The notes beneath the pieces were generated by a model, which saw only the letters and a program-made list of their open reading frames with translations, was not told the origin of the DNA and did no database searches. Both the position numbers and the translations under genes were made by a program. This document shows positions 3,016-61,422 of a stretch of DNA of 64,000 bases, piece by piece (the stretch's first letter is position 1; each line of letters starts with the position of its first letter). The stretch comes from Dehalococcoidia bacterium (lineage in GTDB: Bacteria; Chloroflexota; Dehalococcoidia; Lucifugimonadales; UBA1123). The DNA is taken from contig OY761144.1 of the NCBI GenBank assembly GCA_963664365.1, forward strand, positions 425,596 to 489,595. The letters are read 5' to 3'.

Positions 3016-3128
3016 TTGGGCCTCCGTGAGTATCGCCAGTCCCGGTAAACGCCTCAACTGTGCCAGTGGACGGGACACTCCCATGCCGTCGCCGCCGGCG
3101 CGCCCTTGCAACTGCCGAATACTAGCCA

Positions 3129-4244
3129 TCAGCCCGTCGGGGTGTCAACAGATTCCTGAGCGATGACAACGCAGCTATCCGTTGGGACGTGGACGTACGC
3201 GCCGTCGCCGCGCTCGAATGTCTCAGCCGTCGGAGGCATCCTTACCATGAGGTCCTGATCGGACACGCGAACTCTGTACTCCATGTAACTGCCCAGAAAC
3301 GCGGCGGTCTCGACGACGCACGGCATCGCGTCCGGACCTTTCGGGCTCTCGCGGCTCAGGACGATCCCCTCTGGCCGGATTGCCACAAGCGCGTCCGACC
3401 CTATCGCGCAGTCCTTGACCGCCGCGCTGACCAGCAGGCCGAATCCCAACCGAACGCTCGCCGCGCCGCGCTCGCCCGCCTCCACGACGCCCCGGACCAC
3501 GTTCCCCGCTCCGGTGAAGTCGGCCACGAACCGTCCCTCCGGCCGAGAGTACACCTCGCGCGGAGCGCCGGTCTGAGCGATCCGTCCGCCGTTCATCACA
3601 ATCACCCTGTCGGACAGCGCCAGCGCCTCGGGCAGGTCGTGGGTCACGTATAACGCGGAGATGCCCGCGGCTGAGAATAGGTCTCTGAACTCCAGGCGCA
3701 TCTCCTCCCTGAGCCTCGCGTCGAGGTTGCTCAGCGGCTCGTCCAGAAGCAGCAGTTTCGGCTCCCTGACCAGCGCGCGCGCCACCGCGACCCGCTGCTG
3801 CTGACCGCCGCTGAGCGTCGTCGCGCCGCGGTCTCTAAGCTCAGGTATCTTGCACATCTCCAGGGCGCCGCCAACCCTCTCCTCGATGTCAGACTTGGAG
3901 TACCTGGCCCTCGACACTCTCAACGGGTAGGCCACGTTCTCGAACACGGTCATGTGGGGCCAGACGGCGTATGACTGGAAGACCATCGAGATCGGCCTGT
4001 TGTGCGTCGCCACGTTCGAATTGTCGGACAGTGAAAATACCGGGGAGCCGTCTATCGCTATCCGGCCGGCGTCGGGACGTTCGAGTCCGGCGACGCAGCG
4101 AAGCAGGGTCGTCTTGCCGCATCCGCTGGGACCCAACAGCGTGACCACCTCTCCCTCGTCAACCGACAGGCTGACGTCGTCGATGGCCTTGACATCGCCT
4201 TGCTCAGAGCTGAACGTCTTGACGAGGTTTTCGACTTTCAGCAT
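3129..4244 (-). CDS. ABC transporter ATP-binding protein (FbpC/PotA-like with C-terminal TOBE-like domain)
   Basis: Walker A GPSGCGKTT, signature LSGGQQQRVAVARAL and Walker B LLLLDEP are present. The start is most likely MLKVENLVKTF at 4244, with 4265 as an alternative. The track ORF start at 4433 is a long non-homologous extension. Confidence 0.85.
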   Translation of the reverse strand: MLKVENLVKTFSSEQGDVKAIDDVSLSVDEGEVVTLLGPSGCGKTTLLRCVAGLERPDAGRIAIDGSPVFSLSDNSNVATHNRPISMVFQSYAVWPHMTVFENVAYPLRVSRARYSKSDIEERVGGALEMCKIPELRDRGATTLSGGQQQRVAVARALVREPKLLLLDEPLSNLDARLREEMRLEFRDLFSAAGISALYVTHDLPEALALSDRVIVMNGGRIAQTGAPREVYSRPEGRFVADFTGAGNVVRGVVEAGERGAASVRLGFGLLVSAAVKDCAIGSDALVAIRPEGIVLSRESPKGPDAMPCVVETAAFLGSYMEYRVRVSDQDLMVRMPPTAETFERGDGAYVHVPTDSCVVIAQESVDTPTG

Positions 4245-5930: not shown

Positions 5931-8225
5931 ATGACCACCACCGTTGACTACGAACGAAACATGGTGCTGGCCACCAAGACCTACGACGTGGTTGGCACTC
6001 GCCCCATCCGCCACGATGGGACCGACAAGGTCACAGGCCGCGCGCTCTACGGAGCCGACTACGACACCGCCGGACTCCTTCACGGCCACGTCGTCCGAAG
6101 CCCGCACGCCCACGCCAACATCAGGAACATAGATACCTCGAAGGCCGAGGCGCTCGATGGAGTCCTAGCCGTCGTGACCCATGCCGACTTCACCGGCGAT
6201 TCCGAAGGCATGGTTGACATGGGCGAAGGCGCGCCGACCAGCCTCAAATGGCTGCGCGACAACGTTCTGGCTTCCGACAAGGCCCTGTACAGGGGCCACG
6301 CCATAGCCGGCGTCGCCGCCGTCAACCCACACGTCGCCGAAGAAGCCGCCAGGCTGATCGAGGTGGACTACGAAGTCCTGCCTCCGGTCGTGACCGTGGA
6401 GGAGGCGATGGCCGACGGCGCGCCGCTGCTCCATGACGACCTCAAGACGATGGAGCTTGGAGAGGCGACCGACAACGCAAGCAACGTCGCCGACCACTTC
6501 CAGCACAAGAAGGGCGACGCCGACGCCGGATTCGCCGAGGCGGACGTCATCGTCGAGCGCGAGTACCGCGCCAAGACCGTCCACCAGGGCTACATCGAGC
6601 CGCACAACGCCACCGCCTTCTGGAACGCCGACGGCAGAGTCCACGTTTGGTGCAGCACGCAGGGCGCCTTCGCCGTCCGCGACGCCATGGCCCAGCTTCT
6701 GGATCTGCCCGTATCCAACATCAAGGTCACGCCCATGGAGATCGGCGGCGGCTTCGGCGGGAAGATCCCCATCTATCTGGAGCCCGTCGCCGCGCTTCTG
6801 TCCAGGAAGTCCGGCCGCGCCGTCAAGCTCCTCATGAGCAGGGCGGACGTCTTCGAGGCGTCCGGTCCCACATGCGGGTCTTGGAGCCGAGTGAAGATCG
6901 GCGCGAAGAACGACGGCACGATCACCGCCGCCGAGGTCGAGCTTGCCTTCGAGGCGGGCGCATACCCCGGCTCGCCCGTTGCCGCCGGCGCGCAGTGCGC
7001 CTTGGCGGCATACGACATCGAGAACGGAACGGTGGACGGATATGACGTGGTCGTCAACAAGCCCAAGACTGCCGCCTACCGCGCTCCGGGCGCTCCCAAC
7101 GCCGCCTTCGCCGTCGAGCAGGCGGTTGACGAGCTCGCCCAGAAACTGGGCATGGACCCCATCGAACTCCGCCTCAAGAACGCCGCCAAAGAGGGAACCC
7201 GCCGCGTTGACGGCCCAGTCTTCAACAGGGTCGGACTCGTCGAAACCCTCGAAGCCATGCGTGACCATCCCCATTACAGCGCTCCCCTGGGCGAGAACCA
7301 GGGACGCGGCGTCGCCGTCGGCTTCTGGTTCAACATCGGCTTCGACTCCGCCGTCGATCTCGCCCTAAACGACGACGGCACCGTCAACCTCACCGAAGGC
7401 TCAACCGACATCGGCGGCTCCCGCGCATCCATCGCCATGCAGGCCGCTGAAGTCCTCGGCATTCCGGCCGAGGATGTTCACCCTTCCGTCGTGGACACCG
7501 ACTCCGTTGGCTACACCTTCCTGACCGGCGGCAGCCGCACCACCTTCTCCACCGGCTGGGCAGCCTACGAAGCCGCCCAGTCGCTCAAGAGCAAGATGAT
7601 AGAGCGCGCCGCGACGATCTGGGAAGTCGATGCCGACTCCGTCCAGATGGAAAAGGGCGTCATCAGTTCCACGTCCGACCCCGAGCTCAGCATGACCTTC
7701 AATGAGCTTGCGGGGCAGCTTGGCGGCACGGGCGGCCGTCTTTCCGCCACCGCATCCGGCAACTACCAGGGCTGGGGAGGCTCCTTCGCCGGCAACATCG
7801 TCGACGTCGAGGTCGATCCCGAAACCGGCAAGACGGACGTCGTCCGCTTCACCGCCGTCCAGGACGTCGGCAAGGCCATCCACCCCTCATACGTCGAGGG
7901 TCAGATGCAGGGCGGCTCGGTGCAGGGCATCGGCTGGGCGCTGAACGAGGAGTACTACATGAACGTTGACGGCGGCATGGACAACTCCACGCTGCTCGAC
8001 TACCGAATGCCCACCAGCCTCGACCTTCCGATGATCGACACGGTCATCGTCGAGGTCGCAAACCCGGGACACCCCTTCGGCGTCCGAGGCGTGGGCGAGG
8101 CCAACATCGTTCCTCCGACTCCGGCCATAGCCAACGCCATCCAGAGCGCCACCGGCACGAGGCTCTTCGACACGCCGATGAACTCCGTCGCCATAACGGC
8201 GGCCAGGTCGTCGAACGGGGCTTAG
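5931..8225 (+). CDS. Molybdopterin-binding large subunit of a xanthine dehydrogenase-family hydroxylase (CoxL-like, not canonical CODH)
   Basis: ATG at 5931 lies 2 nt after the coxS-like stop. 764 aa. The active-site loop reads AAYRAPGAP rather than the form-I CODH signature AYXCSFR. Confidence 0.85.
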   Translation: MTTTVDYERNMVLATKTYDVVGTRPIRHDGTDKVTGRALYGADYDTAGLLHGHVVRSPHAHANIRNIDTSKAEALDGVLAVVTHADFTGDSEGMVDMGEGAPTSLKWLRDNVLASDKALYRGHAIAGVAAVNPHVAEEAARLIEVDYEVLPPVVTVEEAMADGAPLLHDDLKTMELGEATDNASNVADHFQHKKGDADAGFAEADVIVEREYRAKTVHQGYIEPHNATAFWNADGRVHVWCSTQGAFAVRDAMAQLLDLPVSNIKVTPMEIGGGFGGKIPIYLEPVAALLSRKSGRAVKLLMSRADVFEASGPTCGSWSRVKIGAKNDGTITAAEVELAFEAGAYPGSPVAAGAQCALAAYDIENGTVDGYDVVVNKPKTAAYRAPGAPNAAFAVEQAVDELAQKLGMDPIELRLKNAAKEGTRRVDGPVFNRVGLVETLEAMRDHPHYSAPLGENQGRGVAVGFWFNIGFDSAVDLALNDDGTVNLTEGSTDIGGSRASIAMQAAEVLGIPAEDVHPSVVDTDSVGYTFLTGGSRTTFSTGWAAYEAAQSLKSKMIERAATIWEVDADSVQMEKGVISSTSDPELSMTFNELAGQLGGTGGRLSATASGNYQGWGGSFAGNIVDVEVDPETGKTDVVRFTAVQDVGKAIHPSYVEGQMQGGSVQGIGWALNEEYYMNVDGGMDNSTLLDYRMPTSLDLPMIDTVIVEVANPGHPFGVRGVGEANIVPPTPAIANAIQSATGTRLFDTPMNSVAITAARSSNGA

Positions 8226-8264
8226 TATCTCGCCTCCAGCGAGGGCGACACAAGCATGAAAGCG

Positions 8265-8290
8265 CGGGGCGGGTCTTGAGGCCCGCCCCG
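8265..8290 (+). terminator. GC-rich hairpin downstream of the coxL-like gene (no U-tract)
   Basis: CGGGGCGGG-tcttgagg-CCCGCCCCG, 40 nt after the stop. No T-run follows, so intrinsic-terminator function is uncertain. Confidence 0.3.
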
Positions 8291-8343
8291 TGTGCGACAG
8301 TCGAAGCGCAAATCAGGGCATCCACTCTTCCAGGAGTTGACAG

Positions 8344-8610
8344 GTGATAGCGAAAGTACCCTTAATCCTCGACCCCCAGCCGGAAGGCGGATACACAGTA
8401 ACATCCCCCCTACTGCGCGGATTGGTAACTGAGGGCGACACAATCGCCGAAGCGCTTTTCAATGCTCAGGACGCCTTCCAGGCGATCGTCGAGATGCACG
8501 AGCATTTCAACGAGCCTCTGCCTCCCGATCTCTTCATCGAGCACAACGATGGGGAGCCTCTCCAAGCGGAAATACTGGCTCCGCTTGCGCTTCCTGTTGC
8601 TGTATCGTGA
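8344..8610 (+). CDS. HicB-like (UPF0150) antitoxin-family protein with no adjacent HicA
   Basis: 88 aa with a GTG start. The pattern PLILDPQPEGGYTVTSPLLRGLVTEGDTIAEALFNAQDAFQ is typical of the HicB N-terminal domain. Local sequence is AT-richer than the flanks. Confidence 0.55.
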   Translation: MIAKVPLILDPQPEGGYTVTSPLLRGLVTEGDTIAEALFNAQDAFQAIVEMHEHFNEPLPPDLFIEHNDGEPLQAEILAPLALPVAVS

Positions 8611-8649
8611 GATACAGAGAAGGGGGCAAATTCGAGGATAGGAGTACAA

Positions 8650-9411
8650 ATGGCTGTTTTTCCTCCTACGCGGATGGATGATGATTTGGTCAGAGAGCTA
8701 GAGGCTTTCCTCTCTGACAACGACTTTCCATCTCTCTACAAATCGTATAGCTGGAGAAACGATACTCACAGCGCTGGCTTTCCTGACATACATCGCTTGG
8801 AAGAGCAGATTGGTAGCCATGCAAAGGTCAGTCGTGTCACACTTGATGACATTGTAGGTATAGTATGCTGGGGAGGATCCAACAGTCCGATAACAATTAG
8901 GTGCCCTGACTCACTCGTGAAATTCAACACCATGTTCAGGACAATTGTACCGCCTGACAATAGACGCGTCTCGGATGACCCCCACCTCATGGCAATGCTC
9001 TTGGATAAAGCCGTTTCCGGTATAGGGCCTACCAACGTCAGCAAAGTTCTCCGCTTCGCAATACCTGAGAAGTACGGGGCCGTAGATTCAAGGTGTGTCC
9101 GAGTGTTCGGACTAGGGGATCCGGCCGCCAACGCACATGACTGGATTAAACTGCAGGCTAGAGAGGACACTCCGAACCGTTGGAACATCCAACAGCACAA
9201 GTGGGCCGAAAAATACATACTTTGGATAGACATTTTGGGTCGCCTTGCGCAAAGCCTCAACGAAGACAGGGTAAGGTGCCCTCACCCTGAGAGGTTCGTA
9301 AAGGCTGGCCTGAGAAAGCGAGGCTCTTGGACATGCGCCGATGTCGAGATGGCACTGTTTGCCTATGCGAGTGAAGTGATCGAGTCTAATGGGTGTCTGT
9401 CAATCAGATGA
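8650..9411 (+). CDS. Hypothetical protein, possibly an OGG-fold (8-oxoguanine glycosylase-like fold) accessory protein
   Basis: 253 aa in an AT-richer region. The segment GIGPTNVSKVLRFAIPEKYGAVDSRCVRVFG and the C-terminal TCADVEMALFAY resemble, from memory, the GVG..AS.iL.f..P..y.i.D.R and R.LD.ALW motifs of standalone OGG-fold proteins. Its stop overlaps the next start (ATGA). Confidence 0.35.
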   Translation: MAVFPPTRMDDDLVRELEAFLSDNDFPSLYKSYSWRNDTHSAGFPDIHRLEEQIGSHAKVSRVTLDDIVGIVCWGGSNSPITIRCPDSLVKFNTMFRTIVPPDNRRVSDDPHLMAMLLDKAVSGIGPTNVSKVLRFAIPEKYGAVDSRCVRVFGLGDPAANAHDWIKLQAREDTPNRWNIQQHKWAEKYILWIDILGRLAQSLNEDRVRCPHPERFVKAGLRKRGSWTCADVEMALFAYASEVIESNGCLSIR

Positions 9412-9719
9412 ATGGGCTTGAGGTTCGACGAACCGATGTCTATACACGCTGGTTCAGAGGTCTTCGGGATACGAAAGCGCGCAGGCGCATCAATGCTCGC
9501 ATCCGACGGCTGACAATTGGAAATCCGGGGGACGTGAGGCCAGTAGGTGAAGGTGTTTCAGAGCTCCGTATCGACTACGGTCCCGGCTACCGTGTGTACT
9601 TCATCAGACGGGGCCGATTTCTAATTATTCTGTTGGCAGGAGGCGACAAGGACAGCCAGAATCGTGACATCCGAAGGGCTCTGGAATTGGCGCGTGACAT
9701 GAGGAAGGAGCAACCATGA
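9408..9719 (+). CDS. RelE/ParE-superfamily toxin (addiction module killer protein type)
   Basis: The sequence RWFRGLRDTKARRRINARIRRLTIGNPGDVRPVGEGVSELRIDYGPGYRVYF...LLAGGDKDSQNRDI matches the killer-protein family pattern. ATGA overlaps occur at both ends. Confidence 0.75.
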   Translation: MNGLEVRRTDVYTRWFRGLRDTKARRRINARIRRLTIGNPGDVRPVGEGVSELRIDYGPGYRVYFIRRGRFLIILLAGGDKDSQNRDIRRALELARDMRKEQP

Positions 9720-10111
9720 TAGAGACACACCCTTGGGACCCAACCGAGGGCTTGGATACCGAAGAAGATATGATAGATTACTTGGAGGCAGCTCTTGAGC
9801 TTGACGACCCGTGGCTGGTCGCGGCTGCTCTGACAGACATCGCCAGGGCGAAGGGTATGCCGGAAGTCGCCCAAGAGGTCGGACTTAGCGATGAGAGCAT
9901 GTACGAGTCGAATCGCCGCGGCGACGGGTTGGACTTTGCCATCGTGCTCAAGCTGACGCGCGCGCTTGGACTAAGGCTCCACGCGGGCGGATATGCGCGA
10001 ATCGCCGGCGATCAGGGAGCGCGCGAACCGAGAGCGGCCGACTGCTCCGGCTCTTCCGATGAGGTTGCACTCGACTCGAATTCTGTCGCCGAGTATGCAC
10101 AGGCCAGATGA
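9716..10111 (+). CDS. HigA-type HTH antitoxin (addiction module antidote protein type)
   Basis: Pattern WDPTEGLDTEEDMIDYLEAALELDDPWLVAAALTDIARAKGMPEVAQEVGLSDESMY...LKLTRALGLRL. Toxin-first gene order is typical of HigBA-like pairs. Confidence 0.7.
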   Translation: MIETHPWDPTEGLDTEEDMIDYLEAALELDDPWLVAAALTDIARAKGMPEVAQEVGLSDESMYESNRRGDGLDFAIVLKLTRALGLRLHAGGYARIAGDQGAREPRAADCSGSSDEVALDSNSVAEYAQAR

Positions 10112-10159
10112 ACACGCTTCCCCGTAACCTCGTTCCTATCACATTCGGAGATTGAACAC

Positions 10160-10426
10160 ATGGCAACTGTATTCATCCCGTCACTTATGCAGAAGTTGAG
10201 CGACGGACAGACTAACGTCGAAGTCGAAGGTTCCAATGTCCGACAGATTGTTGACAATCTTGACGCTCGGTATCCCGGCTTCAAGGAGCGCCTCGTCGAG
10301 GACGGCAGGATCAAGGGCAACATCTCAGTCGCCATAGACGGCGAGATAACGCCACTCGGCATTCTTGGCAAGGTGGGCGAGAACAGCGAAGTCCACTTTC
10401 TGCCCGCCCTGGGCGGCGGAGCATGA
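10160..10426 (+). CDS. MoaD/ThiS/CysO-family beta-grasp (ubiquitin-fold) sulfur-carrier-like protein with C-terminus GGGA
   Basis: 88 aa and a paralog of the CysO-like gene at 23075 (shared IP..L....GQ..V...G...R.I.D.....PG.KERL...G). It ends ..LPALGGGA, so one residue follows the Gly-Gly. Confidence 0.65.
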   Translation: MATVFIPSLMQKLSDGQTNVEVEGSNVRQIVDNLDARYPGFKERLVEDGRIKGNISVAIDGEITPLGILGKVGENSEVHFLPALGGGA

Positions 10427-10568
10427 GCCAAACAAAGCCCCAACCGCTCGGCGGCGGAGCATGAGCGAACAAAAGCCGCGACCGTCGCCCTGTCAGCAAT
10501 GCCCAACTCGAACCCCTACCTCGCTTTGTCTGGTACAATGACGCCAGCGATACTCGGAGGACGCCGCA

Positions 10569-10934
10569 ATGGGACGAACGACGGTAGAAGCCTTCGCCAT
10601 CGGACCGAATGGAACTCGGAAGTTGGAGTTCCTGGTCGATACGGGCGCGACGTTGGTTGGTCTTCCCCCGGAGGATATCGAGGCGCTGGGGCTGCCGATG
10701 GTTCACAACGGAAGGCGCAAGGTTCTGACGGCTACCGGCGTGATCGAGCAGGAGACCTACAGCGGATCGATACGGTTAAATGGCGAGGTCACGCCGGCGC
10801 TCGTATCAGAGGCTCCGGTTCCTCTCATCGGTGTGGAAGTACTACAACTTCTGGGATTGAAGGTAAACCTCGTTACGCATGAACTGGAAAAGCCCGGGGA
10901 GGACGAGATTCCTTACATGGCCTTGCTCCTTTGA
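10569..10934 (+). CDS. Retropepsin-like (clan AA) aspartic protease
   Basis: 121 aa with the catalytic-type motif FLVDTGATLVGLP and the later LIGVEVLQLLGL flap/dimer-like segment. A possible extended -10 (TGGTACAAT) lies upstream at about 10533-10541. Confidence 0.6.
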   Translation: MGRTTVEAFAIGPNGTRKLEFLVDTGATLVGLPPEDIEALGLPMVHNGRRKVLTATGVIEQETYSGSIRLNGEVTPALVSEAPVPLIGVEVLQLLGLKVNLVTHELEKPGEDEIPYMALLL

Positions 10935-11891: not shown

Positions 11892-12165
11892 CTCAGATCC
11901 AGCGTCTGACGATGGCATTGCAGTGTTGATGTGTGCGGGCGAGACGCCCGCGCTCCTACGGGTACTAGGCAGTGGATTTGGGTATGATGAAAGCGATTGA
12001 CAGCGTACTGGCGAAGTTGCTGCCGGACCGATACTCTCAGTACGCCGTTTGAGAGTATCGGAGGGCCACCTGGTCGAGGTGGATGTCGAAGCTGCTCCTC
12101 CTAATTGGGCGCAGGGGACGGAAGGCGGTCGGCGGCGAAGGTGTGCCAGATCGGTAAGGAGTGGC

Positions 12166-12217
12166 TTCACCCTCACCCCAACCCTCTCCCTCAAGGGAGA
12201 GGGGGTATGTTGGCTGG
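12166..12217. repeat. Palindromic intergenic repeat family P1 (core CCCTCTCCCTCAAGGGAGAGGG)
   Basis: Core copies at 12182-12203, 12772-12793, 13634-13655, 13702-13723, 13771-13792, 29681-29702, 35290-35311 and 60052-60072 (1-nt variant). Loop variant CCCTCTCCCAGNCTTGGGAGAGGG at 35006-35029, 39542-39565 and 60245-60268. Usually preceded by TCACCCTCACCCYAR. Confidence 0.85.
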
Positions 12218-12291
12218 TAGTTGTGCCTACTAAAGTGGCATAGGCTTGTTGATGGCCCCAAGGTCTAATTGTTGACTGGGCCTGTGTGGTT

Positions 12292-12678
12292 TCATTCGGA
12301 CACCAGGGCGTCTAGGCGTTCGAGCAGTTCTCCGTAGTCTTTGACCCATGTTGAGATCGATTCAGCGGTTTCGGCTGTTATCTTCATTCGTTCGGCGAGG
12401 TCGGCCAGATACTCTTGCTCCTCGCTGCTTACGTGTTCATCGGCGAAGGCGAGCATTATCGCATCGCGATAGACTAGCACGCGCGTCGGCCACGGCAGTT
12501 CGGTTAGGTCGTCGGGGACGTCGGGCAGGGCGTTTAGGTCGATGCCGAATTGTCCCGCGTGGTGGTCGAGGAGGTCTCGTTCGCTGGGATGAAGGCCATC
12601 TGAATGGGCCAGTTTCGACAGCGTGGCGACGTATAGTTCGGGCGAAAAGCCTTCGAGAGGGTTTTGAAGCGGGTCCAT
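12292..12678 (-). CDS. TerB-like (tellurite-resistance TerB/DjlA N-domain-like) small protein
   Basis: 128 aa, acidic and predicted helical. The segments LSKLAHSDGLHPSERDLL and AFADEHVSSEEQEYLADLAERMKI resemble the paired TerB repeat. Confidence 0.35.
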   Translation of the reverse strand: MDPLQNPLEGFSPELYVATLSKLAHSDGLHPSERDLLDHHAGQFGIDLNALPDVPDDLTELPWPTRVLVYRDAIMLAFADEHVSSEEQEYLADLAERMKITAETAESISTWVKDYGELLERLDALVSE

Positions 12679-12795
12679 GCTCTATTCCTCCAAGATTTTG
12701 TCCAGATTGTCAGTGTGGGCCATGGTCTTTCCATGGTGAGAGGGAATCTGTGTCAATCACCCTCACCCCAGCCCTCTCCCTCAAGGGAGAGGGGG

Positions 12796-13578
12796 TTAGT
12801 TGTCCGGTTGATGAGCCTGTTTCTCAGATAATCGCAAGGCCTCTTTGTTGAGCAGCGCGGTGAGGGCGCGGACGTGGTCGATCAGAGCCGACAGGCGTTG
12901 TTCCTGACCTCGGCTGAATCGTTGGTAGTTGTTTCCCGCATGGCCTTTGAGCCAGGCCAGTTCGTCGAGGCAGCCTTTGATTCGTTCTTCCGTGCGCTCA
13001 AGAAGCGTCTCGATCTCTTGCAGGGTTGTTCTCAGAGATCGGACTTCCGCTTCGACTTCGACGCGCCGCTCGGTCGCTTCTCTGGCGAATCTCTTGTTTC
13101 GGCTGTTGAGATATAGGCCGGAGCCGACGAGGGCGGCGCCTCCAACTCCCCATCCTACGGGCCCGGCGAGGGCCATCAGCGCGCTTCCACCGACGATACC
13201 ACCGCCGCCGGCTGATATGGCCATGGCCGCGGACGGTCCGAGCGCGGCGACGCCCACGCCCGCCATTGCTCCGGCGGCGCCCGCTGCGCTGCCTATCTTC
13301 GTTGAGTCGGGGGCCTCGGTCTCGAAATGGCTTACGGTTCCCGAGAACCTGTCGGCTTCTACGCGAAAGTCGGCAGCCGATCTTTGGAGATCATCGGGTG
13401 AGGCCACGATGAGGCTCGCGTAGTCCTCGACCGCCAGAATCACCTCGATAACGGCCCTCTGACGCTGCCGGAATAGTTGCATACCGGCGCGCTCTACCTG
13501 CTTGCGCGCGATTTCGCGCTCCTCGACGGAGTTGTTGAGTTCTTCTATCGCCTTTCGGCGCGCGGAGGAGTTGAACAC
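12796..13578 (-). CDS. Hypothetical coiled-coil membrane protein with a central glycine-zipper segment
   Basis: 260 aa. Charged, coiled-coil-like N- and C-terminal regions flank the G/A-rich hydrophobic core GSAAGAAGAMAGVGVAALG...GGIVGGSALMALAGPVGWGVGGAALVG. The 3' end runs into a palindromic repeat. Confidence 0.4.
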   Translation of the reverse strand: MFNSSARRKAIEELNNSVEEREIARKQVERAGMQLFRQRQRAVIEVILAVEDYASLIVASPDDLQRSAADFRVEADRFSGTVSHFETEAPDSTKIGSAAGAAGAMAGVGVAALGPSAAMAISAGGGGIVGGSALMALAGPVGWGVGGAALVGSGLYLNSRNKRFAREATERRVEVEAEVRSLRTTLQEIETLLERTEERIKGCLDELAWLKGHAGNNYQRFSRGQEQRLSALIDHVRALTALLNKEALRLSEKQAHQPDN

Positions 13579-13591
13579 TCTCCGTCTCCTT

Positions 13592-13808
13592 GTTGGCAGG
13601 GGTAGGTATTGGGCTTATTCACCCTCACCCCAGCCCTCTCCCTCAAGGGAGAGGGGGTATGTTGGCAGGGTTTGGTATTGACTTATTCACCCTCACCCCA
13701 GCCCTCTCCCTCAAGGGAGAGGGGGTATGTTGGCAGGGGTAGGTATTGGGCTTGTTCACCCTCACCCCAGCCCTCTCCCTCAAGGGAGAGGGGGTATGTT
13801 GGCTGGTC
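13592..13808. repeat. Tandem array of three 68-69-bp units, each containing a P1 palindrome
   Basis: TTCACCCTCACCCCAGCCCTCTCCCTCAAGGGAGAGGGGGTATGTTGGCAGG starts at 13618, 13686 and 13755. The inter-palindrome segments are also similar to each other. Confidence 0.85.
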
Positions 13809-13865
13809 ATCGTGTTGTTTTTGCCTATTCTTGTTAGCCCTTTCCTTGTTACATGCCCTGCCGAT

Positions 13866-15080: not shown

Positions 15081-15251
15081 GTTCTGTTCCTTTCCAGAGG
15101 GGTTTGAATTCGGTTTGGATGATAACATGAGATTGGGGTTTAGGGTGTAAGGGGGTTTGTCCACGAAGGGCGCGAAGGGGCGCTAAGTGGTCTGAACTGT
15201 GATTCATTTGATTGGCATGATTAGCCAGATGCGCCTCCCTGCCCCGCACCT

Positions 15252-15335: not shown

Positions 15336-15635
15336 TTAGACCCAGATTTTGATTGGGATTCGTTCTATCATCAGTTCGGTAATGGCGTGGACTAGGGCGT
15401 CGGCGCGGTCGGGGGAGCCGGAGGGTCCGAGTTCGGCGGACCAGGTACACATCTGGTCTTCGAGTTCGGGGAAGCGGCCTACGTGGTGGACTCGTCCCTG
15501 CTCGTAGAGGGCGGCTACGTGTTCTTCGAGGAGGTTCTCGTAGGCACGGACGATAGCCATACGCTGCGCGTAAGGAAGGCCGGTCACCTCGGCGGCGATC
15601 TCGGATATTAGGTTGTCAGATGTCAGCGACGTCAT
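15336..15635 (-). pseudogene. Terminase large subunit (TerL) remnant, copy 1 (N-terminal leader fused to the C-terminal end)
   Basis: 99 aa. The C-terminal FPELEDQMCTW....GSPDRADALVHAITELM resembles the conserved C-terminal end of GTA/HK97-type TerL. The N-terminal 45 aa align with copy 2. The ATPase and nuclease core is absent. The start overlaps the upstream stop (ATGA). Confidence 0.5.
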
Positions 15636-16576
15636 GGGTCAGGCGGTTTGTCGTCATCTTCCTGGTCGTCTGAGTGTGACGGGTAGATCTCCTTGTGCTT
15701 CCGCCGGCGGCGTTCTTCGATTTCGGGCCACTGCTTTTGGCGTTCGTATCGCAGGTTGATCTCTTCCCAGAACTTGGCGGCTTCCTCCTTAGCATAGGGA
15801 GTGAGGTCGAAGTCGTCGGGGGGCATGTATTTGGATATGTCTATCTTAGGTCGGTTGGGGTCGGGGTTCAGTTCGCCCTCGTCCTTCATGCGTTGGACTT
15901 CGGCGCGGGCCGCGGCCAGCTTTACGGGGTCAAGGTATTTGACGGGGCGTCGGTAAGGTTTCTTCTCGGCGGGCTCGGGCCGGGTGAGGGCGCGGCCGGT
16001 TCCGAGGATGCGGTCGAGCAGGCTTCGGGCGGCGCGCGTGCGGTGGTAGGCGGTTATGGCCGTGTCTTCGTCGGGTGCGCGGGCTATGTCTTCGAGGGTG
16101 TCTCGGAGGGTCTGGCCGTTGTCGGTGATTTTGAGGATGTATTTTTGGATGGTGGTTAGTGGATGGTGGATAGTGGATAGTTGGTCGTGGTTGGTGGGCG
16201 CGGCCGGGGGCGGGCCGAGGGTGTCGTTTAGGGTGTGTTTGATTTGGGTTACGAGTCTGGGGGAATCGGGTTCAGGTGTGGCGGTTTGGGGCGATTCGTG
16301 AATCGCCCCTACGTCGGTGTCGTCGGTTTGGTTGTCGGTGTCGTCGGTTTGGTTGTCGGTGTCGGAGGCGGGTGACTGTTTGGGGCACTTGCCGAGACCG
16401 TGGTCCATGAGTACGTTGGCGGCGGTGATGCGGTCGTTTGGGTTGGCGCGGTATCCGCCTTGTGAGATTTTGTGGAGGACGTCAATGAGGTCGCGGCCGT
16501 TGTTCGTCTCCGCGAGGGTGGCGTCGGCGAAGTCTTGCGCCGGGTTGGGTGGTGTCTGTTGGGCTGTGGTGGTCAT
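15632..16576 (-). CDS. TerS-like (phage small-terminase-like) multi-copy family protein, copy 1
   Basis: 314 aa with a duplicated module: TNNGRDLIDVLHKISQG...NDRITAANVLMDHGLGK and ITDNGQTLRDTLEDIA...YHRTRAARSLLDRILG. It sits at a terS-terL-type junction. Paralogs lie at 33768-34673 and 60306-61298. Confidence 0.4.
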   Translation of the reverse strand: MTTTAQQTPPNPAQDFADATLAETNNGRDLIDVLHKISQGGYRANPNDRITAANVLMDHGLGKCPKQSPASDTDNQTDDTDNQTDDTDVGAIHESPQTATPEPDSPRLVTQIKHTLNDTLGPPPAAPTNHDQLSTIHHPLTTIQKYILKITDNGQTLRDTLEDIARAPDEDTAITAYHRTRAARSLLDRILGTGRALTRPEPAEKKPYRRPVKYLDPVKLAAARAEVQRMKDEGELNPDPNRPKIDISKYMPPDDFDLTPYAKEEAAKFWEEINLRYERQKQWPEIEERRRRKHKEIYPSHSDDQEDDDKPPDP

Positions 16577-16621
16577 TGGAGTTTTTAGTCTTTAGTAGTT
16601 GGCCGTACTGTTGTGCTGGAT

Positions 16622-16651
16622 AGTATAGAGGGGTGAGAGAACGGATGTCAA
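16622..16651 (-). promoter_or_regulatory. Sigma70-type promoter of TerS-like copy 1
   Basis: The minus strand reads CCCCTTGACA-18 nt-TATACT. The same CCCCTTGACA box precedes copy 2 (34743-34748, -10 TATTCT at 34720-34725, 17-nt spacer), copy 3 (61324-61329) and the trpS T-box leader. Confidence 0.6.
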
Positions 16652-16712
16652 GGGGGTTTTTAGTGGATAGTGGATAGTGGATAGTGGGTAGTTTTTGGTT
16701 ATTGGTGGCGCT

Positions 16713-16930
16713 ATTCACGAAGGGCACGAAGGGGCACTAAGGGTTGTCTGAACTGTGATTTTTGTGATTGGGGTGATTTCGCTGATTGAGTTGGAGGATG
16801 TTCGGGGATTTTAGATTCCTCGCTGCGCTCGGAATGACAGGGTGTGTTGTCCACGAAGGGCACTAAGGGTCACGAAGGGTTGTCTGAACTGTGATTTTTG
16901 TGATTGGGGTGATTTCGCTGATTTTGGGGA
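16713..16930. repeat. Repeat family P3 (CACGAAGGGCRCTAAGGG..GTCTGAACTGTGATT..GGTGATTTCGCTGATT), two tandem copies
   Basis: Near-identical units at about 16713-16790 and 16848-16925. Related copies at 15160-15225, 34812-34945 and, inside a CDS, at 60995-61045. Confidence 0.75.
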
Positions 16931-17161
16931 TTGTCTGAAGCAGGATTTAGGGGATTCCCGCCCGGATGGGACGAGGAGCGCGTCCGCAGCGTTCTTGAAT
17001 ACTACGAATGGCAGACAGAGGATGAAGCCGTGGCGGAAGACGAGGCCGCCTATGAGGACCCGACGCACGCGATGATGACGATTCCCAAAGAACTGGTTCC
17101 TGCGGTCAGGGAGTTGCCGGCGAAACACGACAGTCCACAGTCAACGCCAACCGTAAGCTAA
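16931..17161 (+). CDS. Small conserved hypothetical protein (start uncertain)
   Basis: 76-aa ORF. The segment PPGWDEERVRSVLEYYEWQTEDEAVAEDEAAYED...IPKELVPAVREL resembles a small acidic protein family. The first ~9 codons (TTG start) are repeat-derived, so the true start is unclear. Confidence 0.3.
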   Translation: MSEAGFRGFPPGWDEERVRSVLEYYEWQTEDEAVAEDEAAYEDPTHAMMTIPKELVPAVRELPAKHDSPQSTPTVS

Positions 17162-26324: not shown

Positions 26325-26510
26325 TTCCAGCGTAAAAATTCGCGCATCATGGCAACCGCAGGATTATAGACCATCGGGACAAGATTCTCTATCCCGCGCG
26401 CGCTCCCGAGCCTGTCCCATATTAGTAGGCGACCTCTACTCCCCACCGCTGGATTCCGGCCTTCGCCGGAATCACCATGGCCTTGTCAGGCCACATAAGA
26501 GGGATGAAAA

Positions 26511-29623: not shown

Positions 29624-29714
29624 GTCGGTCTCCTTTCCGGCGGTTGGGGATGAAGGCGGTTTCAATCACCCTCACCCTAGCCCTCTCCCTCAAGGGAGAG
29701 GGGAAAAGTTGGTC

Positions 29715-31160
29715 TCAGATGTCTAATTCGCGTTCGGCTTCGTCTATGGCGGTTAGTATGGCGCCTGCTTTGTGGAGCGTTTCCATGTATTCGAATTCGG
29801 GGGTTGAGTCATACACGATTCCGCCGCCGGCCTGTACGTGGGCGACGCCGTCTTTGACGACGAGCGTCCTGATGGCGATTGCGGTGTCCATGTTGCCGGA
29901 CAGGTCGAAGTAGCCGACGGCTCCGGCATAGACGCCGCGGCGGTCGGGTTCGAGCTCGGCGATTATCTCCATGGCCCTTATCTTTGGCGCGCCGGAGACG
30001 GTTCCCGCCGGGAAGCAGGCCCTGAGAGCGTCGTATGCGCTGTATCCGTCCTGAAGTTGGCCGGTGACGTGGGACACCAGGTGTATGACGTGGGAGTATC
30101 GCTCGATGTCGAGCGTCTGCGTGACCTCGACGGTGCCGGGCTTGGAGACGCGGCCCACGTCGTTGCGGCCCAGGTCTAGGAGCATGATGTGTTCGGCGCG
30201 TTCCTTCTCGTCGTTTCTCAACTCCTCTTCGAGGGCGAGGTCTTCTGCCTCGTTCCTGCCGCGCCGCCGCGTCCCGGCGATGGGATGAACCGCAACCCGC
30301 CCGTCCACAACCTGCACCAGCAGTTCGGGCGACGCTCCGACGATCTGGAAGCCGTCGAGGTCCAGATAGTACATGTAGGGCGACGGGTTGATCGCGCGCA
30401 GGGAGCGGTAGATCTGGAACGGGTGGGCCGAGGTCGGGCGGGACATGCGCTGGGCGACGACGGTCTGGATGATATCGCCGGCGATGATGTACTCGCGGGA
30501 CTTCTCCACCATGCCGTCGTAGCTCTCGCGAGTCATGTTGAACTCAATATCGGCGCCGGTCGGCTGGTCGAGATTGGGTTCTGGGAGCCGGGGCTGGGCG
30601 CTGAGCCTGCGGATCACGTCGTCGATGCGGGCGGTGGCGGCTTCGTAGGCGGCCCTGGGGTCGCCGTCGAGATAGGCGTGGCTGACGACCTTGATCTTGT
30701 GTCTTACGTGGTCGAAAATCAGGTATGTCGTCGTCATCATGAAGATCGACTCCGGCACCTCCAGTGGATCCGCGTCCGGGGTCGGCAGGTTCTCGAAGTA
30801 GCGGACGGCGTCGTAGGCGATGTAGCCGACCGCGCCGCCGTTGAACTTGTCCAGGTAGTCGACGTCGGCCAGCTTGTACTTTGACAGCATCCGCTCGACC
30901 GGCTCAAGCGGGTCCACGGCGCCCAGGTCTTCGCCGGGGCCGGTCTTGATGACCTCTCTGGGGTCAGCGCCGATGAAGCTGTACCGCGCGACGTGCTCGC
31001 CGCCTTCCACGCTCTCCAGAAGGAACGAATACGGTCCGCGCGCGACCTTGAGGTAGGCGGACACCGGCGTTTCGAGGTCGGCGTTGATTTCGCGGTACAC
31101 GGGAACGAGGTTGGCGCTACCCGTGTGGGACTTCACCTCTTCGAGTGACGGATGGTACAT
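29715..31160 (-). CDS. trpE: Anthranilate synthase component I
   Basis: Start MYHPSLEEV at 31160 (GAGGAA upstream), 11 nt after the trpS stop. Motifs LLESVEGG and GAVGYF. The upstream part of track ORF 29715-31904 is an Arg-rich out-of-frame read of trpS. Confidence 0.9.
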   Translation of the reverse strand: MYHPSLEEVKSHTGSANLVPVYREINADLETPVSAYLKVARGPYSFLLESVEGGEHVARYSFIGADPREVIKTGPGEDLGAVDPLEPVERMLSKYKLADVDYLDKFNGGAVGYIAYDAVRYFENLPTPDADPLEVPESIFMMTTTYLIFDHVRHKIKVVSHAYLDGDPRAAYEAATARIDDVIRRLSAQPRLPEPNLDQPTGADIEFNMTRESYDGMVEKSREYIIAGDIIQTVVAQRMSRPTSAHPFQIYRSLRAINPSPYMYYLDLDGFQIVGASPELLVQVVDGRVAVHPIAGTRRRGRNEAEDLALEEELRNDEKERAEHIMLLDLGRNDVGRVSKPGTVEVTQTLDIERYSHVIHLVSHVTGQLQDGYSAYDALRACFPAGTVSGAPKIRAMEIIAELEPDRRGVYAGAVGYFDLSGNMDTAIAIRTLVVKDGVAHVQAGGGIVYDSTPEFEYMETLHKAGAILTAIDEAERELDI

Positions 31161-32274: not shown

Positions 32275-32588
32275 CGAGATTTTCCAGAAACGAAAGACCC
32301 GCCCCTCGAAAGGGACGGGTCTGGTTTTCCGTGGTACCACCCTAGTTCATCGTCCGTAGAGACGGACGACCTCTTGTCAGGCACGGAGGTCTTGAGCCTC
32401 GATGCCCTGGGCTTCGGTAACGGCGCCCTCTCCGGCCAAGCCTACAACCGTGGTGTGCGGCTTCGGTTGGCGGCTCCCAGGTCCATTCGTCCCCCTCGCG
32501 AGCGCCGGGCTCTCACCCACCCCGGCTCTCTGAGGCCCCGATTGGGGAACTACTAGTCCCGATCTCAGCCTTTCGTGTGTCTGCTGTG
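32275..32588 (-). promoter_or_regulatory. T-box riboswitch leader, Trp specifier (UGG)
   Basis: The minus strand shows AGUAG(K-turn region)...CAGAGAG...GGUGGGUGAGA...GACGAA-UGG-A (specifier)...AACUAGGGUGGUACCACGG (T-box). This is followed by the terminator AGACCCGTCCC-TTTCGA-GGGGCGGGTCT plus TTTCGTTTCT (plus-strand 32295-32322). Confidence 0.8.
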
Positions 32589-32625: not shown

Positions 32626-32652
32626 GGGGCTGGGAGCGCGGGGACTGGCGGC

Positions 32653-33082: not shown

Positions 33083-33469
33083 TTAAGCACTGGAATCTGC
33101 CTCTCTCCCCCTGCGGGTTTCAGAGTTCAGCCTGCCATTGTCTCTTAGCATATCGTGGGCTGTGGTTCTTGTCCAACCCCTAGGTCCCGATACTTCCCAA
33201 AGCCACAGTTGATTTCTCCTCTGGGCATTGGGTGGATACGTGCTGTCGTCAATCTTGCCCATGACTCTCAGGTTGTAGAAGTAAGTCGTCAGCAGAACAG
33301 ACCGAACATAATCCGGGACGATATACTCGAATGTGGCTGTTGCCGATTCGCCTGGTTCAACTATGAGTTCGTTTTTGTTCCAGACCCTTGGTATTTCCTC
33401 CAAAACCCTCCAACCCAAATCTTGGTATCTACCGCCGTGGTCGAATGTCTGAGCGTACAGGTTCTCCAC
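33083..33469 (-). CDS. Hypothetical protein (AT-richer ORF downstream of the TerL remnant; GTG start assumed)
   Basis: The C-terminal 128 aa of track ORF 33083-33631 has protein-like composition (ENLYAQTFDHGGRYQDLGWRVLEEIPRVWNKNELIVEPGE...). The upstream part of that ORF is an alternate frame of the TerL remnant. No family was recognised. Confidence 0.25.
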   Translation of the reverse strand: MENLYAQTFDHGGRYQDLGWRVLEEIPRVWNKNELIVEPGESATATFEYIVPDYVRSVLLTTYFYNLRVMGKIDDSTYPPNAQRRNQLWLWEVSGPRGWTRTTAHDMLRDNGRLNSETRRGREADSSA

Positions 33470-33771
33470 ATCTTCATCTCTGTGACGGCGTGGACTAGGG
33501 CGTCGACGCGGTCGGGGGACTGGGAGGGGCCGAGGTCTGGGGTCTTGCCGAAGCCTCTGCCCGCGAGTATCAGCCAGGTGTTCCAGTTGCCGGGCGGCGG
33601 GAGTTGGTCCGGCCGGGCGTGGAGTTCCCATGCGTGATTGAGCCTGAGGGCGTCATGTTCGTCGAGCGCCTGACGATAGACGCGAGCAAGGGCCGCACGC
33701 TGGGCGTGCGGGAGTGGCCTCAACTCGTCGATGATTTCGGATAGGATGTTTTCGGCGGTCGTCATGTTCAT
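33361..33771 (-). pseudogene. Terminase large subunit (TerL) remnant, copy 2 (N-terminus through Walker A fused to the C-terminal end)
   Basis: MNMTTAENILSEI...HAWELHARPDQLPPPGNWNTWLILAGRGFGKT is joined directly to PDLGPSQSPDRVDALVHAVTEM. It retains the TerL N-terminal W..ARP.Q..P.G.W..WL...GRG.GKT Walker A region, but the whole ATPase/nuclease body is missing. The start overlaps the upstream stop (ATGA at 33768-33771). Confidence 0.5.
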
Positions 33772-34673
33772 GGGTCCGGCGGTTTGTCGTCTTCGGAGTG
33801 TGAGGGGTATATTTTGGCGAGTTTCTTCCGCCTTCGTTCTTCGATGGCGGGCCATGCTTTCTGTCGTTCGAGCCGCATCTTGATGTCGGCCTCGAACTTT
33901 TCGGAAGCTTCGTCCAGGTAGGGGGTCGGGTCGAACCATTCGGGTATCTCAGGCACGGTTATGTTGTCTCTGCGACCGTCCGGGTAGGGTGTGAGTGTGC
34001 CCTCGTCCTCCATTCGCCGGAGCTTGGCGCGGAATTCGGCCAGGTCGTCGGGATCGATTTGTCTGACGGGGCGGACGTAGGGTTTGGTCCTCGTTTCGAG
34101 TGCGCTGTCGGTTCCGAGGAGACGGTCGAGCAGGATACGCGCGGCTCTTGCGCGGTGGTAGGGCGTGACTTTCGGGTCGTCTTTGGCCCGGGCGATTTCT
34201 TTGAGTGTGTCTCGGATGGTCTGTCCGTTGTTGGTGATTTCGATGATGTGCTGTTGGATGGTGAAGTGGATGGTGGATTGTGAATAGTGGTTAGTAGATT
34301 GTGGCGAGTGGGTGGTTGGGGCCGGGCCGAGGGCCTGGTCCAGGGAGTCTTTGATTTGGGTTACGGGCCTGGGGTTGGCGGCGGGCACCGAGGGCGATTC
34401 GCGAATCGCCCCTACGTCGTTGGCGTCGTTGGCGTCGGATTTGGGTGTTGGGGCCGGATTGGGGTCGATTTGCCTAGGGCATTTGCCGAATCCTCTGTCG
34501 GCGAGTATGTTGGCGGCAGTGATGCGGTCGTTGGGGGTGGCCTTCTGGTCGTTGCCTTGGGCGATATCGTGTAGGATCTCGATGAGTTCGAGACCGTTGT
34601 CGGTTTCCTCGCGGATGGCGTTGGCGAAGTCGAGGGCCGGGTTAGATGGTGTCTGTTGGGTTTGTTGAGTCAT
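33768..34673 (-). CDS. TerS-like multi-copy family protein, copy 2
   Basis: 301 aa, colinear with copy 1 (MTQQTQQTPSNPALDFANAIREETDNGLELIEILHDIAQG...NDRITAANILADRGFGKCP ... ITNNGQTIRDTLKEIA...YHRARAARILLDRLLG ... EERRKKLAKIYPSHSEDDKPPDP). Confidence 0.4.
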   Translation of the reverse strand: MTQQTQQTPSNPALDFANAIREETDNGLELIEILHDIAQGNDQKATPNDRITAANILADRGFGKCPRQIDPNPAPTPKSDANDANDVGAIRESPSVPAANPRPVTQIKDSLDQALGPAPTTHSPQSTNHYSQSTIHFTIQQHIIEITNNGQTIRDTLKEIARAKDDPKVTPYHRARAARILLDRLLGTDSALETRTKPYVRPVRQIDPDDLAEFRAKLRRMEDEGTLTPYPDGRRDNITVPEIPEWFDPTPYLDEASEKFEADIKMRLERQKAWPAIEERRRKKLAKIYPSHSEDDKPPDP

Positions 34674-35381
34674 TAGTTTTTAGTGGTTGGTGGATAGTGG
34701 GTGTACGACAGTTCTATTTAGAATACATGGTCTTTGGGCTGGTGTCAAGGGGTAGAAGCAGGATTTACGGGATTGGGGGATATTCAGGATGGGGTTGGTT
34801 GGTGGATATAGGTTGTCCACGGGTCACTAAGGGGCGCTAAGGGTTGTATGAAGTGGGAGTTTGGGGATGGGGTGGTTTCGCTGATTGGGTTGGAGGATGT
34901 TCGGGGATTTTAGATTTCTCGCTGCGCTTGGAATCACTATGGCCTTGTCAGGCCACATAAGGGGATGAAAACTGCTTAGCATCTAATTCTCAACCCTCAC
35001 CCTCACCCTCTCCCAGACTTGGGAGAGGGGACTTTCGCGCTCGCGCGCGGGGGAACCGATTGGACTGCCCATGGACGCTTGCTCCCTTTGGATTTTCGCG
35101 CTCGCGCGCGGGGGAGCCTAGTAAAGTGACACAGGCTCTGGCGCCGACATTGGACTGGCAATCGTGGACTATCTATGCTACACAAGAGACAGCGCAAAAC
35201 CATTGACGGTATCAGGATAAGAGACTGTCCCAAGTTGGTAGGCGGGCGTATCACCCTCACCCCCGTATCGAGTACGGGGCAGGCTCTAGCCCTCTCCCTC
35301 AAGGGAGAGGGGATTTTCGCGCTCGCGTGTGCGGCGCCTACTAATCCGGGACAGGTTCTCATGATAAACAGAGGTTCGCCA

Positions 35382-61298: not shown

Positions 61299-61422
61299 TA
61301 GTTTAGAGCATAGGGTCTGAGGATGTCAAGGGGTGATTTTAGTGGATGGTGGATAGTGGGTAGTTTTTAGTTTTTAGAGGTGGAGGGCGTCCGGCGATTT
61401 GGTGGTGGATTTAGGTTGGGTA

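Follow-up and report, generated by a model that had tools for sequence, protein, structure and literature searches.

Candidate minimal packaging cassettes of phage origin, dispersed in a Dehalococcoidia chromosome, in which a putative small terminase gene is the part retained

Terminase genes are usually the hallmark of complete or decaying viruses, and the question raised by the locus described here is why a minimal two-gene unit of this kind should be multiplied in cellular genomes, and which part of it has been kept. The window, by which we mean the whole 64-kb stretch analysed, lies within a single 3,396,024-bp contig of a Dehalococcoidia bacterium (OY761144.1, positions 425,596 to 489,595) and contains three related minus-strand genes, numbered along the window as cassette copies 1 to 3, which an original prediction made from the letters alone took to resemble genes for the small terminase subunit (TerS), two of them followed by remnants of a gene for the large subunit (TerL). 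The reading that we prefer, at a probability of about one half, is that these loci are lineage-specific, duplicatively dispersed minimal phage packaging cassettes of which a TerS-derived DNA-binding adaptor is the retained part. It is carried by observations of five kinds, namely the anatomy of the cassettes, their copy number, the phage origin of their TerL, the selection acting on the open reading frame (ORF), and a set of private DNA motifs. The three genes are as follows.

15632..16576, minus strand: copy 1, TerS-like gene of subfamily A, ORF of 314 amino acids (aa)
33768..34673, minus strand: copy 2, TerS-like gene of subfamily A, ORF of 301 aa
60306..61298, minus strand: copy 3, gene of subfamily B, ORF of 330 aa, without a TerL remnant

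ORFs of 314, 301 and 330 aa are found at exactly the positions that had been predicted for three paralogs. Identity is 56% between the proteins of copies 1 and 2 (tblastn, E 4e-85) and 27% between those of copies 1 and 3 (E 7e-15), so that by sequence comparison the similarity among the three is far above chance, with copy 3 representing a separate subfamily (B) that has no TerL remnant downstream. The copy 1 protein is composed of two homologous helical modules at about aa 12-63 and 138-192, variable linkers, and a conserved C-terminal helix and tail. The internal duplication of the module, proposed earlier from a shared residue pattern, is confirmed by hhalign, which aligns module 1 with module 2 at a probability of 97.9% (E 5.6e-13) and gives 0.2% for a control comparison of module 1 with the C-terminus. 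The description of a three-copy cassette holds for the window and falls short for the chromosome, where the window's own contig carries 22 or more full-length paralogs; the best 120 database relatives include 22 from this contig, of which 18 belong to subfamily A and 4 to subfamily B.

What ties these genes to phage packaging is the ORF that follows copies 1 and 2. In each, the stop codon of the TerS-like gene overlaps the start of the next ORF within the sequence ATGA, a junction that had been predicted and is read directly in both copies.

15336..15635, minus strand: copy 1 TerL remnant, 99 aa, ATGA overlap with the TerS-like stop (profile matches and alignment)
33361..33771, minus strand: copy 2 TerL remnant, 136-aa ORF, ATGA overlap (alignment to TerL)

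Both are pieces of TerL, as had been claimed for decayed ORFs of 99 and 137 aa, although the second is of 136 aa. The copy 1 remnant consists of about 40 N-terminal residues fused in frame to the last 55-60 residues of TerL; it matches Terminase_6C at E 2e-4 (below the gathering score) and the TerL family phrog_979 at E 5.5e-7, and is 70% identical to the C-terminus of an intact relative's TerL. In copy 2 the TerL homology spans 33469-33777 and runs from the N-terminus through the Walker A motif (GRGFGKT), joined in frame to a C-terminal block. Complete ATPase and RNase H-like nuclease domains are missing from both, of which only fragments are left, and in-frame junctions in both remnants together would arise by chance about once in nine times.

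An intact form of the unit is present in a related genome at the locus that we designate L008, where a TerS-like gene (8001-8957) is followed, after a one-base gap, by a complete TerL of 451 aa with both Terminase_6N (E 3.9e-27) and Terminase_6C (E 5.3e-17) domains, the motifs of which were also read by eye. This TerL is 52% identical to that of Microcystis phage Mae-JY09 and 46-58% identical to 80 TerLs of IMG/VR phages, and as a bona fide phage terminase it bears out the packaging origin proposed for the cassette. The genes around the L008 pair encode a sulfate transporter on one side and dehydrogenases on the other, and phage structural genes are absent. The intact unit measures about 2.5 kb and comprises a promoter region of about 170 bp, the TerS-like gene and the full TerL gene; homology between cassettes starts about 170 bp upstream of the ATG and stops 6 nt past the TerL stop codon.

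Other cassette loci display further states of TerL decay: the gene is split by an insertion sequence (IS) in L006, and reduced to an N-terminal stub in L007 and to a 53-aa stub in L009. Part of the extreme C-terminus is retained in four of the five degenerate TerLs, while subfamily B genes are never accompanied by a TerL remnant. In locus L009 the extreme 3' end of terL also occurs by itself, as a piece of about 90 bp at 3064-3147 (minus strand) in an intergenic gap of an opp-type transporter operon, and at 9061-9300 there is a TerL 3' end that is tandemly duplicated together with a small repeat. The IS cluster in the L006 cassette TerL (9557-10882) has counterparts upstream of mutS in L013 (1895-6685) and L014 (674-6685), the transposases being of the DDE_Tnp_1 and DDE_3 types, and conventional transposons are thus active in those genomes too.

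The visible decay of the TerL genes would also be expected if these loci were debris of decaying prophages, or if they were an artefact of assembly, but we regard this explanation as highly improbable. The proteins of the window copies differ by 44-73%, and the copies are too divergent to be an assembly duplicate of one locus; 22 prophages would not all have been trimmed to the same 2.5-kb unit with the same edges; and the ratio of nonsynonymous to synonymous substitution rates (dN/dS, or omega) is below 1, with ORFs that have stayed open far beyond neutral expectation.

The identity of the upstream gene is less readily established. At E<=1 no TerS family of Pfam matches the TerS-like proteins, and NCBIfam provides no match; eight of 36 members match phrog_10899 'terminase small subunit', weakly (best E 4.5e-4), and 27 of 36 match phrog_7407, a family of unknown function. 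An AlphaFold (AF2) model of the full-length protein is all-helical, with modules at aa 12-61 and 138-192, a long C-terminal helix at aa 259-297, disordered linkers, a predicted local distance difference test score (pLDDT) of 67 and a predicted template-modelling score (pTM) of 0.44, and the module modelled alone has a pLDDT of 88. Comparison by HHpred- and Foldseek-type searches, which had been suggested as the check on the assignment, gave nothing significant, with TerS recurring among the weak top matches. Foldseek found no match below E 0.1 for the module or the full-length model, and for the whole protein none below E 0.5 in PDB and BFVD, a negative that carries little information given the low model confidence and the disordered linkers; among the top 13 module matches the only functionally named proteins are annotated 'Terminase small subunit' (probability up to 0.84, non-significant), and TerS entries recur among the weak full-length matches. 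A comparison profile built from ORFs immediately upstream of related TerLs in IMG/VR phages aligns with module 2 at an hhalign probability of 28% (E 6e-4), and the two best raw matches of the module hidden Markov model (HMM) among all six-frame segments of the phage loci are ORFs in this TerS position; direct hhalign comparison with the TerS-position proteins of the two closest INPHARED phages yielded nothing. The profile matches in PDB, to tektin and designed repeat proteins, involve short, low-complexity stretches only, include no TerS, and were discarded.

The position of a TerS directly upstream of terL is occupied in the ATGA copies 1 and 2 and in L008, and not in copy 3 of subfamily B. 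That the upstream gene is TerS-derived is weakly supported by sequence, the main argument being position and translational coupling to TerL, joined by homology that is weak but consistent. The term TerS-like thus survives on position, coupling and weak profile and fold matches, with neither a curated TerS family nor a solved TerS among the significant matches.

Is the protein maintained? Pairwise dN/dS is 0.3-0.6 among the eight copies of subfamilies A and B with DNA (a separate value for the C-terminal part of the L006 TerL was discarded because of a frame problem), and not near 1 as it should be in decaying prophage debris. For copies 1 and 2 the ratio rises to about 0.9 in linker 1, as against 0.37-0.56 in the modules and C-terminus, and subfamily A paralogs are 70-79% identical in the structured blocks versus 35-50% in linkers 1 and 2. 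The C-terminal tail is conserved across subfamily A copies whatever the state of their TerL.

The history of one locus can be followed more closely. A subfamily B gene lies downstream of mutS in the window (copy 3), in L013/L014 and in L018, and is missing in L015; the window gene is inverted relative to L013 and L018, with an extra ORF in between. The gene is open in three lineages (window, L013 and L018), and its dS of 0.57-0.76 equals that of the adjacent mutS (0.68-0.78), whereas its omega is 0.4-0.6 versus 0.08 for mutS, indicating that it has been vertically inherited and kept open while the protein evolved about five times faster. When neutral descent was simulated, allowing substitutions only, the frame survived open in about 5% of descendants per lineage, and retention of the ORF at one locus over three lineages favours a selected protein. 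The original prediction had offered a selfish element or repeated domestication, and the retention, in favouring a selected protein, does not choose between them.

We note several other features at this locus. A 122-nt direct repeat (84% identical, at 59899-60020 and 61418-61539) flanks copy 3 on both sides, and a conserved protein of 241-249 aa is encoded beside mutS in the window (59152-59877, minus strand) and in L015 (9653-10402, minus strand), not in L013 or L018, without a Pfam, NCBIfam or PADLOC match. In L018 the subfamily B gene is followed by a methionyl-tRNA synthetase gene.

Every paralog in the window's genome has its closest relative in the same genome (68-95% identity, versus 58-75% for foreign copies), and L006 and L008, which belong to one genome, are 92% identical over the 3' part of TerL and about 72% elsewhere. 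Together these patterns suggest that new copies and recombination between copies are still arising. They also invite the view that the unit is a purely selfish element, the TerS-like protein recognising the element, the TerL ATPase and RNase H-fold nuclease cutting, and TerL-less copies riding in trans. We think this unlikely, while ranking it first among the alternatives to our reading. The discrete boundaries common to copies, amplification within a genome up to 95% identity, the polymorphism of presence, absence and inversion downstream of mutS described above, the internal-deletion derivatives that keep both ends together with the solo 3'-end fragment in L009, the mosaic recombination between L006 and L008, and the lack of any other recombinase inside the unit are all what such an element would produce. 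Terminal repeats or target duplications were not recognised, however, and repeats form a mosaic at the 5' edge. Loss of the ORF is the rule in non-autonomous elements, whereas here the ORF is conserved and has been inherited vertically at one locus over a dS of about 0.7. Moreover, we know of no terminase-based transposition.

The fast evolution of the protein (omega 0.4-0.6) and the lineage-specific expansion into many diverged paralogs can be accounted for in another way, if the TerS-like proteins and mini-TerL peptides are anti-phage decoys that sequester or misdirect the terminase or portal of infecting phages, as satellites interfere with the packaging of their helpers. There is a precedent in the satellite PLE (phage-inducible chromosomal island-like element), in which Gpi binds and blocks phage TerL and the phage pac site is mimicked (10.1101/2024.04.22.590561), and the strong predicted promoters and the partial retention of the extreme C-terminus in four of five degenerate TerLs fit this proposal as well. 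Since no PADLOC defence model is matched, the cassettes lie between housekeeping genes with no known defence genes adjoining, and the in-frame junctions of the window remnants may be due to chance, we also consider decoys unlikely, and place them second among the alternatives.

The promoters themselves are near-consensus sites, predicted by a promoter scanner for all three copies.

16622..16651, minus strand: copy 1 promoter-like site, TTGACA-18-TATACT, 11/12
34720..34748, minus strand: copy 2 promoter-like site, TTGACA-17-TATTCT, 10/12
61300..61329, minus strand: copy 3 promoter-like site, TTGACA-18-TAAACT, 10/12

The claim that each copy has its own promoter is in this respect upheld, but the cassettes share the CCCCTTGACA box with a T-box leader, which it heads at 32620-32629, and it is therefore better seen as a generic strong host promoter than as a cassette signature. 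Within the upstream homology TTGACA-17-TATACT is conserved in L007, L008 and L009, with a close match in window copies 1 and 2, and the upstream sequence that copies 1 and 2 were said to share is confirmed over 78 nt at 90%. In subfamily B the -10 box TAAACT ends 1-2 nt before ATGTTCATG / TTGTTCATG (window 61290-61329; L013 9680-9730; L018 9650-9700), an arrangement that predicts leaderless subfamily B mRNAs beginning at the second ATG; the mRNA of copy 3 is, on this spacing, probably leaderless and starts there.

The window's only two T-box leaders, at 32308-32575 (minus strand) and 61628-61848 (plus strand), lie about 0.8 and 0.3 kb from cassettes 2 and 3, and the first has a promoter of the same CCCCTTGACA-17-TATACT type. 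Between cassette 2 and this T-box promoter there is a 77-aa ORF (32653-32886, minus strand) that resembles a HicB antitoxin by eye and has no Pfam match at E 1e-3.

Several short motifs are present that, in the window and about 180 kb of other loci in which their privacy was checked, are concentrated at the cassettes; they are listed here together with an in-frame tandem repeat of linker 1.

16661..16687, minus strand: copy 1 perfect (CCACTAT)n array, just upstream of the -35 box
16150..16183, minus strand: copy 1 heptamer array inside the ORF, linker 2
34264..34304, minus strand: copy 2 degenerate heptamer array, linker 2
34681-34700: copy 2 further heptamer array, in the leader
61340..61359, minus strand: copy 3 heptamer array upstream of the -35 box
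16288..16309, no strand assigned: copy 1 22-bp palindrome GGGGCGATTCACGAATCGCCCC, linker 1, translating as GAIHESP
34391..34412, no strand assigned: copy 2 22-bp palindrome, linker 1, GAIRESP
16716..16923, minus strand: repeat R2 (core CACAGTTCAGACAAC), two copies, in the 5' flank of copy 1
15165..15235, minus strand: third R2 copy, in the 3' flank of copy 1, same orientation
60999-61013: R2 core in frame, copy 3 linker 1
16313..16364, minus strand: copy 1 in-frame 21-nt tandem repeat, 2.5 perfect units (DTDNQTD), linker 1

The window contains 18 matches to the 7-bp (CCACTAT)n unit versus 1.75 expected, 17 of them in or beside cassettes and all 18 on the sense strand. Copies 1 and 3 have a heptamer array adjoining the -35 box and copy 2 has one in the leader, and a further array is present at about +370 to +410, within the otherwise unconstrained coding sequence of linker 2, in six of seven subfamily A copies. 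The 22-bp palindrome GGGGCGATTC(A/G)CGAATCGCCCC is confined to five subfamily A copies, in which it lies in linker 1, being perfect in copy 1 and having one or two mismatches in the others. R2 (core CACAGTTCAGACMAC) recurs as four tandem copies in the 5' flank of L006 and in frame in linker 1 of subfamily B and of L009, and every palindrome and R2-core match is in or adjoining a cassette, on the sense strand. We considered R2 as a terminal direct repeat because it flanks copy 1 on both sides, but it does not so flank L006, L008 or copy 2.

The number of 21-nt units in linker 1 varies among paralogs, reaching about 10 in paralog P0033; translations of private repeats (GAIRESP from the palindrome, TNHSSD from R2) were recognised by eye, as were those of generic genome repeats in the linkers of other members (LSLEGEGWGEGE, RHSGEGRNPE and EPAPYSIRGA, from protein only). 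Short palindromic intergenic repeats resembling miniature inverted-repeat transposable elements (MITEs), such as CCCTCTCCCTCAAGGGAGAGGG and CATTCCGGCGAAGGCCGGAATC, are common in the window (12139-13817, 26436-26510, 29638-29727, 39421-39585, 56406-56445 and 59899-60288), where they include a 69-nt tandem array of 3.1 units at 13591-13803, and in-frame translations of such repeat types occur in linkers of family members elsewhere. Separately, a 51-nt tandem repeat of about 6.8 units (74% matches) lies at 49652-49988, probably within a coding region.

The cassettes are also set apart by composition. Their sense strand is about 40% C, 20% G, 29% A and 10% T, a skew that is confined to the cassettes and includes their upstream non-coding DNA (15632-16950, 33768-34950 and 60306-61400); within the 64 kb, only the three cassette genes have a |GC skew| above 0.3 in 400-nt windows. 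Changes of C>T together with A>G on the antisense strand would fit this pattern, which resembles that of the mitochondrial heavy strand; as a side effect, stop codons arise rarely. Retention of 3' ends together with this skew raised the idea that copies are made by retro-copying of a cassette transcript, which was set aside because the homology between copies takes in the promoter and a further 100 bp or so upstream.

The placement of heptamer arrays against the -35 box, where a repressor or activator would bind, fits a third alternative: an exapted host family of DNA-binding or regulatory proteins that has lost any packaging role, with TerL remnants as baggage and the repeats as autoregulatory operators. 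In keeping with it, the ORF is kept without TerL in subfamily B, and distant relatives have two or three modules and no terminase link. It is hard to see, however, why a host should need at least 22 fast-diverging paralogs with near-consensus promoters; the C-terminal tail is conserved across subfamily A irrespective of TerL, and an intact cassette with a complete TerL ORF persists. We judge this account improbable, and place it behind both the selfish element and the decoys.

How widely is the family distributed? A profile search yields at least 955 clusters at 90% identity, unnamed and without a Pfam domain, and an HMMER scan of 1.84 billion representatives recovers 338 relatives at 50% identity (E<=1e-3), mostly fragments; in a few distant relatives the module occurs two or three times, with no link to a terminase. 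No member of the TerS-like family was found in IMG/VR, in JGI metagenome contigs or among INPHARED phages, and among GTDB representative genomes the family occurs in one Dehalococcoidia metagenome-assembled genome only. Those relatives of the window's MutS that bear a taxon name are assigned to Dehalococcoidia. The proteins of 82 phage loci with a related TerL (80 from IMG/VR and two from INPHARED) match the window at the two TerL remnants, the other match being to a host-type gene block at 50.6-52.7 kb. PADLOC returned no match for subfamily A, subfamily B or the intact TerL, and Rfam nothing in the copy 1 cassette.

The surroundings are those of an ordinary chromosome. Cassette neighbours in the window and in L006-L009 are metabolic or housekeeping genes, and a Pfam scan of the immediate neighbours revealed no phage domains, in accordance with the expectation that no portal or capsid genes would accompany the copies. 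No integrase, replication or regulatory modules were found in or beside the unit in these same loci (attachment sites were not searched systematically), although an unrelated rve gene adjoins L010; no transposase lies inside the unit, and the window contains no inverted repeats of 40 nt or more. The 5' edge of the cassettes is a variable mosaic of repeats, although boundaries are common to copies. Two orthologs of the enolase-family neighbour of copy 1 (L016 and L017) show no synteny with the window and provide no empty site.

The mechanism that we propose for the dispersed cassettes begins with the copying of the whole two-gene unit (promoter, TerS-derived gene and terL) to many chromosomal sites. 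TerL would have been dispensable at most of them, lost by internal deletion, truncation or IS insertion, with the TerS-derived gene the part kept by selection. The small-terminase-like protein may bind sites in its own cassette (the heptamer arrays, the 22-bp palindrome and R2), and its conserved C-terminus may engage a TerL-type motor in trans, which could come from an infecting phage or from one of the few intact cassettes. On this view a cassette would unite promoter, terS and pac-like site in one self-contained unit, a locus at which packaging is initiated or terminase is captured. In pac-type tailed phages such as P22, SPP1 and Sf6, the pac site lies inside or beside terS. We infer DNA binding, TerL interaction and any packaging outcome from the analogy with such phages and with a synthetic phagemid in Staphylococcus aureus, in which terS under its native promoter is a sufficient packaging signal for a known helper phage (10.64898/2026.06.26.734846).

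A number of points weigh against this proposal. No significant sequence or fold match to any characterised TerS was obtained, and the modules could be a generic helical repeat, designed armadillo-type proteins being the PDB matches over a short stretch. A dN/dS of 0.3-0.6 is, as a sequence-based measure, a sign of only weak constraint. Heptamers are missing upstream of some subfamily B copies, the palindrome is by its mismatches in L006-L008 drifting rather than held perfect, and the proteins of subfamily B end in a different C-terminus, their genes never adjoining a TerL. Pac sites alone would not need 22 diverged protein copies, and neither transposase, integrase, terminal inverted repeats nor target duplications were found that would explain the dispersal.

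A bolder version is that the chromosome is seeded with at least 22 units of promoter, terS and pac site for a distributed form of lateral transduction, in which a few intact TerLs and the capsid of a resident phage or gene transfer agent (GTA) would start packaging at many points in the genome, or else that the cassettes represent a class of terminase-based mobile element. We offer this tentatively and consider it unlikely; either form must also explain the strand skew of the cassettes, for instance by a single-stranded intermediate.

If the proteins do still recognise their own cassettes and recruit a motor, they would provide a new route to chromosomal gene transfer or phage interference, set in an abundant, uncultivated bacterial lineage. 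Whatever their role, they add a large unannotated protein family without a Pfam domain, and the cassettes will mislead TerL-based prophage finders and can break short-read assemblies.

Searches of the literature on terminase cassettes, satellites and Chloroflexi, Dehalococcoidia or SAR202, and of the libraries, found nothing comparable, in agreement with the earlier view that this is not a described element type. The parts are known and the organisation seems new: a multi-copy terS-like/terL unit without structural genes, in which only the small-subunit-like gene is retained, appears to be undescribed. It resembles the terS-terL modules of pac phages in gene order and, in window copies 1 and 2, in the overlapping stop and start codons, in the possession by the L008 TerL of a Terminase_6N ATPase and a Terminase_6C nuclease domain, and in having repeats embedded in, and just upstream of, the small-subunit gene. 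It differs from them in lacking portal, capsid and other phage genes, in its dispersal in at least 22 copies, and in its mostly degenerate TerL, and the protein differs from the usual TerS in being about twice as long, with a duplicated module and no curated TerS family.

In GTAs of the RcGTA type, one terS and one terL accompany a single head-tail cluster, and no dispersed terS copies are involved in packaging the DNA. The cassettes resemble GTAs as genes for phage packaging that reside in the chromosome of a cell and may serve to export DNA, and differ in being dispersed in at least 22 copies. In-frame insertion into ORFs is a property of Rickettsia palindromic elements and other MITE-like repeats, and the cassette linkers similarly hold in-frame translations of short repeats; in contrast to the Rickettsia elements, the palindrome, R2 and the heptamers are private to cassettes in the sequence examined and not genome-wide.

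With satellites, such as those with the TerS of Staphylococcus aureus pathogenicity islands and phage-inducible chromosomal islands (SaPI/PICI) or the Gpi, GpsA/B and pac mimicry of PLE (10.1101/2024.04.22.590561), the cassettes have in common chromosomal terminase-related functions without capsid genes. Satellites depend on the motor and capsid of a helper, as the cassettes may do. A satellite is an island of about 5-20 kb, present once and equipped with integrase, replication and regulatory modules, whereas the cassette is multi-copy and of 1-2.5 kb. The cassettes, read here from their sequences, are natural and chromosomal, unlike the engineered terS signal (10.64898/2026.06.26.734846), and yet the architecture that they have retained, a promoter and a terS-type gene in a self-contained unit, is the same.

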